A stretch of 64,000 nt of DNA from Candidatus Mcinerneyibacteriota bacterium. Its GTDB lineage: Bacteria; Macinerneyibacteriota; Macinerneyibacteria; Macinerneyibacteriales; DSCS01. The position numbers and the translations under genes are program-made. How positions within the stretch are numbered: position 1 is the first letter of the stretch; every line of letters starts with the position of its first letter. The stretch is taken from positions 1,394-65,393 of the forward strand of contig JAFGWL010000001.1 in the NCBI GenBank assembly GCA_016937175.1. Reading direction: 5' to 3'. Shown in pieces: positions 7,205-11,857 of this stretch. The notes beneath the pieces are model-generated. The model made no database searches and had not been told where the DNA came from. It worked only from the letters and a program-made list of their open reading frames with translations.

Positions 7205-7487
7205 CTTCCCCTCCTTCCCCCTGCCTGAAGTATACTCCCTTCACCCTATCCTGTCCAAGAGTTTGCCTGAGCCGGGTCAGAAGCTCTCCCCTTCTTCCGG
7301 ATAATTCAAAAAGCCACGCTGACGAATCACAGACCACCGTAAGTCTGCCTTTGACCAGAAAAAGGGGCCGGCAATGCCGGGCGGCCTTGTCTCCGGCCAC
7401 CCGGGCCCAGGCCTCTTCGATTTCGTCAAGATGTTCGGCCTCTCCCGCCTTGATGATCTTCCGGATCACATCAGAGATCGGACGCAT
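7170..7487 (-). CDS. dciA: DUF721/DciA helicase-loading protein
   Basis: W..VAG..A.HCRP...GRL.V.C.SSAW..EL pattern; canonical position after recF. Confidence 0.8.
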   Translation of the reverse strand: MRPISDVIRKIIKAGEAEHLDEIEEAWARVAGDKAARHCRPLFLVKGRLTVVCDSSAWLFELSGRRGELLTRLRQTLGQDRVKGVYFRQGEGGEDGKDKDPHRGR

Positions 7488-8529
7488 GGGTGATCACCCC
7501 TTCCCTGACGTGAAAAGTCCGGCTCCCGGAGCCGAAGGGCTGTTTTCCTTCCACCATGGTGAAAAATACCTGGCTCTCTGTACGAATGATCTCTTCAAGC
7601 AGGCCCTTTCTTCTGGAGTGGTCCAGTTCCTCAAAGATATCATCCATGAGGAGGATCCCTTTTTTGGGCGAACGGCTGTTAAAGAGATCCAGAAGCGTCA
7701 GAAGGAGCGAAAGCACAAAGCTTTTCATCTGTCCCTGTGAGGCGTGAGTTGACATCTCCTTTGCGTTCATAGACAGAGTATAGCGGTCCCTGTGGGGCCC
7801 CACCGTGGTATAGCCGCGCTCTCTGTCCTCTCCTCGTGAGCTGAAAAACTCCTCCTCGTCAAAAGAAGGCACATGGCGGATCCGGGCATCCCGGACAGCC
7901 GGGAAAAGACGCTGAAAGGTAGCCGGAAGGGCTTCATTGATCTCTGTTATGAACTGCGCCCGGGCCCGGGTGACCTCTTCGCCGTAACGGCAGAAGTATT
8001 CATCCCAGATCTCCAGCTCCTTCCGGCTGAACGAGCGGGATTTCAGAAGAGCGTTGCGCTCCTGTAAAACACGGTTAAAGCGAAGCAGAGACTCCCTGTA
8101 GGGGGGATAAAAAAAAAGGATATAAGTGTCGAAAAACCGGCGGACTTCTCCGGAGGAAAAATAAAAGATGTTAAAGACCTCGCGGCTGACGAGAAAGGGA
8201 AAGACCTGCATAAAAAACTCCGAATATCCCAGTTCCTGCTGTTCCATCCCGTATTTGAAGTTTTTCTCCCTGTCGTAGAAGAGAAACCTCTCATGGGCAG
8301 CCCCCGATTCTCGCAGGACGAGACGAAACCAATCCTCTCCCCATTGGATCATATCACGTCCCCGGGCCTTCCGGAAACTTTTGCCGTTGAAAAAGAGGTA
8401 GAGGGCCTCCAGTACATTGCTTTTCCCTGATCCGTTTGGGCCCTCGATGATATTGAAACGGGGAGAGACATCCATCTCCCCCCGTTTGATATTACGGAAT
8501 TGATACAGTTCTAAGCTTTGAAGGCTCAT
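7471..8529 (-). CDS. recF: DNA replication/repair protein RecF
   Basis: FRN, GPNGSGKSN Walker A, GPHRD, ASQGQ signature, LLMDDIFEELD. Confidence 0.93.
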   Translation of the reverse strand: MSLQSLELYQFRNIKRGEMDVSPRFNIIEGPNGSGKSNVLEALYLFFNGKSFRKARGRDMIQWGEDWFRLVLRESGAAHERFLFYDREKNFKYGMEQQELGYSEFFMQVFPFLVSREVFNIFYFSSGEVRRFFDTYILFFYPPYRESLLRFNRVLQERNALLKSRSFSRKELEIWDEYFCRYGEEVTRARAQFITEINEALPATFQRLFPAVRDARIRHVPSFDEEEFFSSRGEDRERGYTTVGPHRDRYTLSMNAKEMSTHASQGQMKSFVLSLLLTLLDLFNSRSPKKGILLMDDIFEELDHSRRKGLLEEIIRTESQVFFTMVEGKQPFGSGSRTFHVREGVITHASDL

Positions 8530-8536
8530 CCCGCCA

Positions 8537-9643
8537 TCAGTCAAGCATGACCAGGGGCATGATGACCCAGAGATAATCCGCACTGTTTTCCGGAGTCATC
8601 AGGACAGCGCTTTCATTGTTATACATGGTCATGACGATATTTTTATCTTCCAGGGTGGAAAGGACGTCTTTTATATATTTATAGTTGAAATCAATACGGA
8701 TCTCCTCATCCTCGTACTGGGCCGCGATGATGTCTTCAGCCAGACCGATATCCGCCATGCGGGCACTGATCTTGAGTTTTCCCTGTCCAAACTGCAGAGA
8801 AGCCCGGCCCGATTCCCGGTTGACGAAGACCGATACCCGCCTCAGGGAGTCAAGGAGACCCAGCCTGGGGACAAGCGCCTTTTTGTTATTGACACTGGGG
8901 ATCACTTTGTCGTATTTAGGATATTTAGCGTCAATAAGCCTGGATACAAGGACGATCTGGTCGATATCAAAACGGATATGCTGTTTGTCGAAGGAGATGA
9001 CCACATCCCCTTCATAATCGATCTTCTGAATCTCATCCAGGACCTTACGGGGAACGACCACACGTGTCCCCTCTTCCACAGAGACCGCTGCCGGCTTTGC
9101 CGATGCCTTGGCCAGAATGTGGGAATCGGTGGCCACAAGGTTCAGGACTCCCTCCTCGTACTCAAAAAGGATCCCTCTGAAGACATACCGGGCCCCGTCC
9201 ACGGCCGTTCCTATAATCGTCCTGGCGATCATCTCTTTCAGTTTTTCAAAGGGGACAGTGAGAGTCGCCGGCTCTTCGGAATGGGGAAACTCAGGATAAT
9301 CATCGGCGGGGATCACCGACATCTCGAACTTCGCACTTCCGGAAGCGATGTAGGCCTTGTCCTCTTCAACCATGACAACGACTGTCTCTTCGGGAGACTC
9401 GGAGATGATCTTGACGAATTTCTCCGCCGGGACCGTGGTCTTTCCCGGAGTCTCGGCATCTACCCCGTTCACACGATAGCGGATACCCACCTCCAGGTCG
9501 GACCCCTCCATGGTCATGGAGCTACCGTCCAGCTGTATCATCATATTCTGCAGGATAGGTTTCATGGATTTTGTGTTGATGATATTTCGAACAATATTCA
9601 TCGGTTTTATGATTTCACTTTTTTTCAACGTGAATTTCATCAT
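8537..9643 (-). CDS. dnaN: DNA polymerase III beta clamp
   Basis: SDLEVGI, VATDSH, SRLIDAKYPKY, IMPL C-terminus; directly downstream of dnaA. Confidence 0.96.
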   Translation of the reverse strand: MMKFTLKKSEIIKPMNIVRNIINTKSMKPILQNMMIQLDGSSMTMEGSDLEVGIRYRVNGVDAETPGKTTVPAEKFVKIISESPEETVVVMVEEDKAYIASGSAKFEMSVIPADDYPEFPHSEEPATLTVPFEKLKEMIARTIIGTAVDGARYVFRGILFEYEEGVLNLVATDSHILAKASAKPAAVSVEEGTRVVVPRKVLDEIQKIDYEGDVVISFDKQHIRFDIDQIVLVSRLIDAKYPKYDKVIPSVNNKKALVPRLGLLDSLRRVSVFVNRESGRASLQFGQGKLKISARMADIGLAEDIIAAQYEDEEIRIDFNYKYIKDVLSTLEDKNIVMTMYNNESAVLMTPENSADYLWVIMPLVMLD

Positions 9644-10965
9644 TTGAAACCTCCGTTATTTAGAAAACTGATCACTTTATCCACTTCATTACGAAAGACG
9701 ATATCCTCTTTCATGCGTCCTTCGATCTTATTGCAGGCGTTTATGACGGCAGCATGGTCTCTTCCTCCGAACGACTGTCCTATAGCCTGCAGGGTATCAT
9801 TTGTAAAGCGCCGGCTCAGATACATGGCGACGAAACGGGGCAGGACGACTTCCTGGTTTCTCCGTTTCCCTTCAAGCATCTTGACCGTCATGTTGAAGTA
9901 GAGAGCCACCTGTTTTTTGATATTCTCCACGGACATATCTTTGAGGTTGTTGTCGAAAAATTCAGAGAGAAGGGCCGTGATATCATTTTTCCCGAGTTTT
10001 TCCATGTTATTGGATATTTTTTTGTAGAATTTTATCCGGCGCAGACAACCTTCCAGCTTCCTGACGTTGCTGGTCACATTCTCTCCTATGAAGAACATCA
10101 GCTCAGGATCGATCTCCACCCCCATGTCTTCGGCCTTTTTCCTGAGGATAGCCACCCGGGTCTCCAACTCCGGTTTTCTGATATCTGTGACAAGACCCCA
10201 TTCAAAGCGTGTGATGAGCCTTTTTTCGATATTGATATCGGCCGGGGGCCTGTCGCTTGTGATGACGATCTGTCTTTTTAATTTATAGAGGTCATTGAAA
10301 GTATGAAAAAACTCCTCCTGGACGGCTTCACTCTTTTCGATGACATGGATATCATCGATAAGGAGGACATCTACGTTTCGATATTTATCCCGGAAGGACT
10401 CCGTGGTCCTGTTCCTGATGGCTTCGATGAGTTCATTCCGGAACTGGTCGGCGGTAACATAAGAACATTTGACATTTTTATCGTATTGAAAGACCTTATT
10501 CCCTATCGCCTGCATCAGATGTGTCTTTCCCAGGCCGGAATCCCCATAGATAAAAAGGGGGTTATAGATAGATTTGCCGTAACTCTGCGCTACAGCCAGT
10601 GCGGCGGAATAGGCCATCTCATTACTGCGTCCGATGATGAAATTTGAAAATGAAAACTCTTTATCAAAATTCAGGACTTGTCCGGAACCCTTCTCGCCCT
10701 GCAAAGGTTCCACCCGACGGTCTACGATATTGAATTGGACATCGACGCTCCCGCCGACTCCTTCACGCAGGATAAAATCCAGCTCTTCGCCGAAAAGGAC
10801 GCGGATCCTGTGAAGAAAAATCTCATCATATGACTCAAAGGAGACGGTCTGCCCCACATGATTGACATGGACAGACTGAAAGAGGTTTTCAAGATTTGCT
10901 CTGTCCATCTTCTCGGACAGACGATCCATGATGTATTCTCTCAGATTATGATCCAATGAAACCAA
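9640..10965 (-). CDS. dnaA: Chromosomal replication initiator DnaA
   Basis: YNPLFIYGDSGLGKTHL, DVLLIDDI, QEEFFHTFN, SNVRKLEG, domain IV GGRDH. Confidence 0.97.
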   Translation of the reverse strand: MVSLDHNLREYIMDRLSEKMDRANLENLFQSVHVNHVGQTVSFESYDEIFLHRIRVLFGEELDFILREGVGGSVDVQFNIVDRRVEPLQGEKGSGQVLNFDKEFSFSNFIIGRSNEMAYSAALAVAQSYGKSIYNPLFIYGDSGLGKTHLMQAIGNKVFQYDKNVKCSYVTADQFRNELIEAIRNRTTESFRDKYRNVDVLLIDDIHVIEKSEAVQEEFFHTFNDLYKLKRQIVITSDRPPADINIEKRLITRFEWGLVTDIRKPELETRVAILRKKAEDMGVEIDPELMFFIGENVTSNVRKLEGCLRRIKFYKKISNNMEKLGKNDITALLSEFFDNNLKDMSVENIKKQVALYFNMTVKMLEGKRRNQEVVLPRFVAMYLSRRFTNDTLQAIGQSFGGRDHAAVINACNKIEGRMKEDIVFRNEVDKVISFLNNGGFK

Positions 10966-11490
10966 CCGAACCTTTCAAAATTTCCCTCCCGGACGACTCT
11001 CTTCAAATTATGATATACGCCCTGCGGGGTTCTGCAAGTCTTTTTTCAGCATAAAATATCTTGTAGTATATCCACAATTTAGAAACACAATTTTTAATTA
11101 CAAACATTGTTAGTACTCCCCTACCCTTTTCTAAAAACAATCTATCTGCCTATATAACAACCACTTAACTATATAAATCAAAAAAAAGGGCTAGAGTCTT
11201 GACACCAAAAACACAAAAAATTCACATTGATAATTTTATCGGCAAAAGATGTAATGTTTTCTTTTTGTGTCCTTTTCTTTTTGTTTTGTGTCTCCTTTGT
11301 TTTCATCTTTTCCTTTTTCCTTTTTCTCTTCCCCGCCCACAAAAAAAGACACATTCATAATTCCTCTAACTTCCTGATCCTCTCTTTCTTTCCTTCTTTT
11401 TTCACAAACACACAGACACTACTACTACTACTTTTTTAAATAAAAGAGTAGATAAAAGAAGAGTAGTAAACGGAACTCAAAAAATACTAT
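10966..11490. other. Replication origin oriC
   Basis: AT-rich non-coding gap upstream of dnaA; near-boxes ATATCCACA (11068-76) and TTTTTCACA (11398-406); (ACT)5 DnaA-trio run 11418-11432 followed by TTTTTAAATAAAA; GC skew flips around here. Confidence 0.85.
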
Positions 11491-11526
11491 TGACATGGGG
11501 GCTTACCTTTGATACCTTTTCGCAAA

Positions 11527-11611
11527 GGAGGAGTGGCTGAGTGGTTGAAAGCGGCGGTCTTGAAAACCGTTGTGCCGCAAGGCACCGTGGGTTCGAATCC
11601 TACCTCCTCCG
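11527..11611 (+). tRNA. tRNA-Ser (anticodon TGA)
   Basis: GGAGGAG/CTCCTCC-type acceptor, CT-TGA-AA loop, long variable arm, GGTTCGAATCC; no encoded CCA. Confidence 0.95.
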
Positions 11612-11625
11612 CTGAACACATAACC

Positions 11626-11720
11626 GGAGAGATGGCCGAGCAGGCTTAAGGCGCACGATTGCTAATCGTGTGAGGTACTAAAGGGTGCCTCCGTGGGTTC
11701 GAATCCCACTCTCTCCGCCA
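11626..11720 (+). tRNA. tRNA-Ser (anticodon GCT)
   Basis: GGAGAGA acceptor, CACGA-TT-GCT-AA-TCGTG, long variable arm, ends GCCA. Confidence 0.95.
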
Positions 11721-11724
11721 TACT

Positions 11725-11811
<87 letters not shown>

Positions 11812-11857
11812 TTGCTGCGGGGGAGTCTCAGGCTTCCCCTTATCCATTTCTCCAATA

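Follow-up and report, generated by a model that had tools for sequence, protein, structure and literature searches.

Origins of the basal unwinding system (BUS) type were defined in Bacillus subtilis and have been predicted in 85% of 2070 origins. They are characterized by at least three DnaA-trios within at most 16 bp of a DnaA box, with 3'-GAT-5' as the preferred trio, and by two boxes in tandem, of which the upstream one is nearer to the consensus (PMC8287927). The origin studied here lies in a 64,000-nucleotide stretch of the genome of a Candidatus Mcinerneyibacteriota bacterium (hereafter, the window), where it occupies 561 bp of non-coding DNA between dnaA and a tRNA-Ser cluster (10966-11526, no strand). 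We read it, with a probability of roughly 0.6, as a standard trio-type origin with degenerate CACA-core boxes, accompanied by a DnaA with tolerated variants at contact positions. This reading draws on the architecture of the region, its conservation, the enrichment of box cores, and the distribution of DnaA variants. An earlier note on this DNA had proposed a co-evolved code between initiator and origin, in which the box keeps CACA and swaps its TTAT half for purines (RRRRACACA).

As in the BUS origins described so far, the origin studied here presents four TAG trios, a 4-nt spacer, tandem boxes with the upstream one nearer the consensus, an AT-rich stretch, and adjacency to dnaA; unlike them, its trio-proximal boxes (TTTTTCACA and AAACACACA) match the canonical 9-mer TTATCCACA poorly and overlap by one base. 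The Escherichia coli oriC contains low-affinity arrays beside consensus boxes, including R2 (TTATACACA) and arrays spaced by 2 bp. The present origin resembles it in having 9-mer starts 11 bp apart and the better site at the end of an array (box F, then G and H), yet lacks a perfect consensus box. The relaxed E. coli consensus TTWTNCACA (PMC5043019) also permits ACACA at positions 5-9, as found here.

Epsilonproteobacterial boxes are described in PMC5043019 as having a TTCAC core with T at position 5, alongside variation of DnaA helix 5 at positions 435 and 438-439; one species has boxes that are effectively 6-mers, their first three positions being degenerate, and short weak boxes are cited for Caulobacter, Mycobacterium and E. 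coli. The present case shares with these the variation at 435 and 438-439, the kept Arg399, a short core, variable first three positions, and T or A in place of C at position 5. It differs in its core ([A/T]CACA vs. TTCAC), in its residues (A435, A436 and N439 vs. S435, S438 and K439), and in that its boxes are predicted from sequence. The DnaA of Thermotoga maritima has a 12-mer box (PMC10316083), which is unrelated to TTATCCACA, and its contact residues differ except for one arginine (PMC7561715). There, as here, replaced base-contact residues accompany a different box, whereas the present DnaA and origin keep D433, H434, R399 and the CACA core. A literature search of limited full-text coverage, which is no proof of absence, found neither these DnaA substitutions nor this lineage.

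Given that location, gene order, skew and GC content all fit, the 10966-11526 region is the chromosomal replication origin, and this call is sound. The gene order is recF (7471-8583), dnaN (8537-9643) and dnaA (9640-10965; 441 aa, TTG start as listed, identified from the open reading frame list and Pfam), all on the minus strand, followed by the origin and, at its far boundary, three tRNA-Ser genes (tga, gct and gga; 11527-11812, plus strand), the dnaA and tRNA sides being divergent. Read from left to right, GC skew turns from negative to positive at ~10-12 kb, with the sign switching at the origin (10966-11526), which adjoins dnaA. The region has 33% GC vs. 51% for the 1.88-Mb genome (1,879,816 bp), and presents the genome's top density of ACACA/TGTGT cores, with 6 per 300 bp vs. 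at most 4 outside this contig.

The trios form a CTA x4 run on the plus strand (11419-11430), i.e., TAG x4 in the dnaA sense, and are adjoined by a 4-nt spacer (TGTC in the dnaA sense; spacer and trios at 11415-11430, minus strand). Next to the spacer lie the trio-proximal tandem boxes B and A (11398-11414, plus strand), which share base 11406. Box B (TTTTTCACA, 11398-11406, plus strand), missing from the earlier note, is the origin's sole match to the relaxed TTWTNCACA, and box A (AAACACACA, 11406-11414, plus strand) completes the pair. Box A is separated from the trios by 4 nt and box B by 12 nt; three or more DnaA-trios thus stand no more than 16 bp from a DnaA box. On the other side of the trios, an AT-rich stretch (11431-11475), whose position is conserved in relatives, is the presumed unwinding element.

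Farther from the trios, a phased triplet of direct boxes is found on the dnaA-sense strand (11196-11226, minus strand), composed of box F (TGTGAATTT, 11218-11226), box G (TGTGTTTTT, 11207-11215) and box H (TGTCAAGAC, 11196-11204), all on the minus strand and each starting 11 bp from the next. Box F, the site AAATTCACA at 11218-11226, leads the triplet and is the ortholog of the order's best-conserved box; it too was missing from the earlier note, whose second site, AAAAACACA at 11207, corresponds to the weak middle member G. Between the triplet and the trios there are two inverted boxes on the minus strand, 21 bp apart (AAGGACACA at 11266-11274 and GGAGACACA at 11287-11295), whose GACACAAA core is kept in three genomes of the genus, and a pair on the plus strand with starts 12 bp apart (CCGCCCACA at 11333-11341 and AAAGACACA at 11345-11353), where a 17-nt block, TGTGTCTTTTTTTGTGG, is identical in the congener G001. 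No perfect TTATCCACA is present in 10966-11526, as the earlier note had stated; the nearest is the promoter-proximal, box-like ATATCCACA (11068-11076, plus strand), one mismatch away, whose slot reads TGT[TG]GATAT across the order but TATAGATAT in both congeners. The origin boxes are indeed non-canonical, with the CACA half retained.

This arrangement is consistent with a conventional DnaA-dependent origin of the BUS type, in which DnaA would bind double-stranded boxes and the tandem pair (TTTTTCACA, AAACACACA) would place an ATP-DnaA oligomer on the dnaA-sense strand at its four TAG trios, opening the adjacent AT-rich stretch. The further weak boxes, phased by 11, 12 and 21 bp, would help to build the oligomer. 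In this scheme, binding by DnaA, unwinding, and the affinities of the individual sites are predictions. The boxes themselves would be degenerate forms of TTATNCACA, with the helix-read CACA kept and the 5' part drifted, a drift that in the window's genus would run into the A and purine tracts filling the whole origin. The substitutions in domain IV would then be natural variants at the level of the lineage, with no RRRRACACA code.

The order was sampled with ten genomes: the window's genus g1 (G000, the window's genome, to G002) and its sister genus g2 (G003 and G004), which together form family f1, family f3 (G006 and G008), and family f2 (G005, G007 and G009). The next relatives available beyond the order are classed only as belonging to the same domain. 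An eleventh origin is provided by an f2-type metagenome contig (L037, 60% identity, near-identical to G009 in the origin), the only member of the order among 80 loci returned by a metagenome scan with the ten-protein alignment.

Read in the dnaA orientation, the relatives present the same layout: tRNA-Ser (which f3 lacks upstream of the origin) comes first, then an AT-rich stretch and three to five trios of TAG or CAG, and finally a 4-nt spacer and two boxes, of 8 and 9 nt. The 4 nt, 8-nt box and 9-nt box follow the last TAG in all ten origins that reach the trios, with examples being TGTC TGTGTGTT TGTGAAAAA in G000, TGTG TGTGAATA TGTTAATAA in g2, and GTGG TGTGGATA TGTAGATAA in f2; by alignment, boxes B and A are orthologous to TTATCTACA and ATATCCACA in f2. 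More direct boxes and two or three inverted boxes then lead to the triplet, which is found in 11/11 origins with starts 10-11 bp apart, 192-203 bp beyond the trios in ten of them. The exception is G002, whose second step is 9 bp and whose contig ends before the trios, so that its triplet was placed by the box itself. The triplet reads TGTGAATTTTT TGTGTTTTTGG TGTCAAG in G000, TGTGAATAATA TGTGTCTAATA TGTAAAAAT in g2, and TGTGGATAACT TGTTAATTAA TGTTTAAT in f2, and the slot of box F holds TTATTCACA in g2 and TTATCCACA in f2.

The dnaA product has both an AAA+ ATPase domain (PF00308, Bac_DnaA, 6.6e-62, residues 101-261) and a C-terminal helix-turn-helix domain IV (PF08299, Bac_DnaA_C, 7.5e-25, residues 346-414; 9724-9930, minus strand), and is thus a DnaA. 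Domain IV aligns without gaps to E. coli chain 1j1v_A (9.3e-18), whose residue 1 we take to be residue 374 in the E. coli numbering used here. In this alignment KRRNQEVVLPRF is paired with KRRSRSVARPRQ, TLQ with SLP, RDHAAVINA with RDHTTVLHA, and PRF with PRQ, which gives the substitutions Q408F, P423Q, T435A, T436A, L438I and H439N, with KRR, D433, H434 and R399 unchanged; apart from L438I, these had been listed in the earlier note, and the alignment confirms them. Computed from the open reading frame, KRR (residues 367-369, E. coli 397-399) is encoded at 9859-9867, F378 (Q408) at 9832-9834, and Q393 (P423) at 9787-9789, while the recognition-helix motif RDHAAVINA (residues 402-410, E. coli R432-A440), located by codon reading and alignment, is at 9736-9762, all on the minus strand.

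Base-specific contacts are attributed to R399, P423, D433, H434, T435 and H439 in PMC2533591 and PMC7561715; the earlier note had named P423, D433, H434, T435 and H439 as contact positions. Among these six residues, P423Q, T435A and H439N are replaced, and R399, D433 and H434 are kept. According to PMC5742627, the helix 434-451 reads TnCACA, and the 5'-TTA third of the box is read by Arg399 in the minor groove. Given that Arg399 is kept here, the helix substitutions are not expected to re-specify box positions 1-3.

Across the order, domain IV reads PRF..TLQ..RDHAAVIN[AG] in g1 and g2, PRF..TLQ..RDHAGVINA in f3, and PRF..TLK..RDHSSVINA in f2, and mostly PRQ..RDH[ST]TV[IM]HA in outgroups. Hence, F408 and N439 are order-wide, and A435 with A436 or G436 is common to f1 and f3. 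The f2 DnaA (L008-L010 and L037) stops four residues earlier than that of f1, with TGA directly after ..YLNK; an automatic flag of one TGA inside the f2 dnaA is merely this stop codon. Elsewhere in G000, the DnaA ATPase domain is weakly matched at two more places (G000:C38:42708-43349 and G000:C2:5632-6099, 25-27% identity), in open frames of 768 and 360 aa conserved across the order, which are probably other AAA+ proteins.

Variants at the contact residues are found beside canonical boxes elsewhere. In f2 itself (F408, K423, S435, S436 and N439), the conserved slots hold TGTGGATAA, and anchor-free expectation-maximization (EM) motif discovery yields the consensus TTATC[AC]ACA. Outside the order, the Acholeplasmataceae metagenome-assembled genome (MAG) L036, with F408, N423, S435, S436 and N439 (PRF..RDHSSVINA), has canonical-type boxes upstream of dnaA, namely two perfect and three one-mismatch TTATCCACA within ~400 bp. 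A targeted pattern search returned five genomes of the order and one Azotimanducaceae MAG with RDHATVINA (L124, G041:C5:221774-225814; H408, K423, A435 and N439), in which two perfect TTATCCACA are located ~250 bp upstream of dnaA, separated by 4 bp (13 bp from start to start). As far as this co-occurrence shows, the substitutions appear not to be incompatible with the canonical box. L124 and L036/L123, unrelated MAGs with N439 plus A435 or F408, may serve as natural controls for specificity claims based on the helix.

In a survey outside the order, 101 DnaA loci were fetched, of which 83 parsed and 18 did not. Position 439 is H in 72 of the 83, N in 7, Y in 3, and F in 1; position 435 is S in 49, T in 32, and G in 2; position 436 is T in 80 and S in 3. 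Given these counts, N439 is a recurrent variant and T435 is not the majority residue, whereas neither A435 nor A436 occurs in any of the 83 parsed loci. A435 and A436 are therefore rare, and the recognition helix is unusual. A search for A436 in independent lineages matched 114 stretches, 80 of them listed; among the 50 peptide matches parsed, three were true DnaA proteins, one of them from the order.

Several observations weigh against the reading of drifted boxes with tolerated DnaA variants. Three of the six base-contact residues (P423, T435 and H439) are replaced. The two A436 loci, L179 and L200, lack TTATCCACA-like sites near dnaA (the dnaA start of L200 being mis-set), and since neither has boxes near dnaA, A436/G436 lacks an informative independent counterpart. 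The change of box from TTATC-N-ACA in f2 to CACA in f1/f3 coincides with the change from S435/S436/K423 to A435/[AG]436/Q423, and C is found at box position 5 in 6/8 sites of f2 vs. 3/70 of f1/f3; this is what a genuine change in specificity would lead one to expect. Between G000 and G001, box positions 1-5 are identical at 40/47 positions against a background of 175/264, so the 5' half, too, is under constraint. Strand composition by itself does not account for the T-runs that follow TGTGT on the otherwise purine-rich strand (e.g., TGTGTCTTTTTTT, kept in G001). Finally, all the genomes are metagenome-assembled, and the G002 origin is truncated and partly poly(A).

The family-level shift is real: origins with A435/[AG]436 keep CACA, avoid C at position 5, and have low information in the 5' half. 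In the anchor-free EM motifs, T2, T4 and C5 carry 0.8-1.1 bits in f2, where position 6 varies, while in g2 and f3 taken together the information is 1.0-1.3 bits for positions 6-9 but 0.2-0.5 bits for positions 1-5. CACA sites in the box region are also three to five times denser in f1/f3 (33-54 per kb) than in f2 (10.7 per kb). Such box variation among families fits the lineage-specific pattern already described for Epsilonproteobacteria (PMC5043019).

These differences could tentatively be attributed to the protein itself. The DnaA of f1/f3 (A435, A/G436, Q423 and N439) would have lost the read-out of positions 1-5, especially T4 and C5, and would recognize a ~4-5-bp [A/T]CACA core, disfavoring C5 and relying on many helically phased sites in compensation, with f2 keeping the full TTATC-N-ACA. 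We regard this as possible, though clearly less probable than tolerated variation. The density of CACA sites, the position of the information in the EM motifs, and the scarcity of C5 favor it, as do the absence of A435 and A436 among the 83 outside loci and the Epsilonproteobacterial precedent of variation at 435 and 438-439 with a TTCAC core and, in one species, degenerate first three positions (PMC5043019). However, the shift is a single event on one branch, and the f2 origins have 17-21% GC, which alone favors TTAT-rich and CACA-poor boxes; given both, the shift is a correlation without replication. Furthermore, A435 and N439 stand beside perfect TTATCCACA in the Azotimanducaceae MAG, and g2 still has T at position 2 in 17/20 sites and holds TTATTCACA in the slot that is best conserved. 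In g1, TTAT is lost further, with no matching change in the recognition helix. The loop after Arg399 reads KRRNQEVVLPR in g1, KRRNKEIV[HM]PR in g2/f3, KRRK[RK]EFVIPR in f2, and KRRSRSVARPR in E. coli, and a link between the less basic g1 loop and box drift is speculation. The family-level relaxation, tentative as it is, is the part worth a binding experiment.

The code proposed in the earlier note, in which the helix (F408, Q423, A435, A436 and N439) reads a purine 5' half and RRRRACACA is the cognate 9-mer, is in our judgment improbable. The five RRRRACACA sites it had listed do occur in the origin (11081+, 11207+, 11266-, 11287- and 11345+). In the whole window there are nine such sites vs. 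5.96 expected, and five of the nine fall within 273 bp. The genome-wide rate (176 sites in 1,879,816 bp) predicts 0.05 per 561-bp origin, local dinucleotide shuffles predict 0.10 and reach five in 0/2000 cases, and other 561-bp stretches of the genome contain at most two each. These figures are flattering, since the motif was defined post hoc from this same region. The bare ACACA core is likewise enriched in the origin, with 7 sites vs. 0.93 expected (0/2000 shuffles). Up to one mismatch, TTATCCACA seems enriched in the window (30 vs. 10.3); given that the perfect 9-mer is near expectation genome-wide (36 vs. 27.3 under an order-4 Markov model), this excess was taken as compositional.

Whether the purine half belongs to the site was assessed by counting every NNNNNCACA site on either strand in the first 250 bp beyond the trios (CA runs contributing each overlapping register), with a partial 200 bp for G002 and the f2 metagenome contig excluded as a near-duplicate. 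RRRR at positions 1-4 is found in 9/23 sites of g1, 0/20 of g2, 2/27 of f3, and 0/8 of f2, while at least 3/4 matches to TTAT are found in 5/23, 11/20, 9/27 and 7/8 sites, respectively. Hence, a genus with an identical DHAAVINA helix uses no purine 5' halves. RRRR is mainly a g1 feature and A435/A436 are present in both genera, F408/N439 being order-wide and A435/A436 family-wide, so that the changes in the protein and those in the DNA fall at different points of the tree; in addition, similar substitutions stand beside perfect TTATCCACA clusters in independent lineages.

Composition offers another account of the purines. In g1, A occupies the three bases 3' of CACA in 14, 17 and 12 of 23 sites, and box positions 1-3 in 15, 11 and 15 of 23; given that A-richness is equal on both sides, the purine flank is context and not a half-site. 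The g1 origins are 68% purine on the dnaA-sense strand, and EM motif discovery on them converged on polypyrimidine low complexity, with no anchor-free g1 motif. They are filled with polypurine/A tracts (window 11230-11400, e.g., GAAAAAGGAAAAAGGAAAAG), which in G002 (L003) turn into poly(A) runs of 20-40 nt, on a contig that ends 498 bp upstream of dnaA. These tracts may act in bending or as spacers, or may be an artefact of assembly.

Conservation partly favors the purine code, given that four of its five slots persist in the three g1 genomes and three of the five sites have G before ACACA. Nonetheless, it is the [A/G]CACA core that stays intact in these slots while the preceding purines vary, and the site at 11081 (AGAAACACA, 11081-11089, plus strand) is lost in both congeners, which read AGAAACTCA and AGAAAAATG. 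Between G000 and G001, CACA cores are identical at 39/42 positions and the 3' flank at 20/26. The enrichment expected under the code is thus borne out, whereas among relatives with DHAAVIN only the ACACA core, and not RRRR, is conserved. Moreover, the trio-proximal and best-conserved slots are TTTTTCACA and AAATTCACA, which are not of the RRRR type, and the helix does not read positions 1-3 (PMC5742627). The near-match ACAAACACA at 11404-11412 does stand just before the CTA x4 run (11419-11430), as had been claimed, but is 2 nt off the register of the conserved box slots.

Least probable of all is that the GACACA cores in the purine tracts serve another origin-binding protein, nucleoid or regulatory, with DnaA using a few near-canonical sites: GACAC/GTGTC is enriched in G000 (5 vs. 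0.3) and the purine tracts are genus-specific, but the same slots are recognizable DnaA boxes in other families (TTATTCACA, CTATCAACA and TGTGGATAA), spacings of 11, 12 and 21 bp are typical of DnaA arrays, and no candidate protein was identified.

Other features of the region are as follows. ACACA/TGTGT occurs 1291 times in G000 vs. 1787 expected (obs/exp 0.72, the sixth lowest of 512 5-mers), and this under-representation was set aside as too weak an argument for avoidance. A GATAT-N8-GATAT/A element at 11045-11076 (dnaA sense), conserved at the same place in L004-L010, reads TTGTGGATATACTACAAGATATT in the window and TTGTTGATATTTATGAAGATATT in g2. Immediately downstream of it comes the conserved block AAAAAGACTTGC..TATATCATAAT, and the element may belong to the dnaA promoter or serve DnaA in autoregulation. 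The presumed promoter region of dnaA has a conserved CTTGCAGAAC..GCAGGGCG block, and overlapping this block is a terminator-like hairpin with a T run (11023-11036, plus strand, antisense to dnaA); G001 retains the inverted repeat. On the other side, TTGACA is found upstream of the tRNA-Ser genes (11492-11497). A sigma-70 scan of 10900-11560 found no promoter, and for this reason the dnaA and tRNA promoters are named from conserved blocks only. In G008 (L006), a promoter-like block (..CTTGCG..CCTGTAATATGA..) is tandemly doubled in the last ~200 bp upstream of dnaA, and this duplication places the trios 544 bp rather than ~450 bp from dnaA.

Taken as a standard trio-type origin, this locus extends the architecture of trios and tandem boxes to a rare, uncultured lineage, represented by ten genomes in the order. 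Since substitutions at 423, 435 and 439 adjoin canonical TTATCCACA clusters in several lineages, caution is called for when new box codes are inferred from nothing but the sequence of the helix. Were the shift among families protein-driven, comparing the three families would offer a compact way to study what determines DnaA-box specificity, a question left open for Epsilonproteobacteria in PMC5043019. If this proved true, the order would offer a closely related natural pair of initiators in which to map how positions 423, 435 and 436 set box length and specificity.

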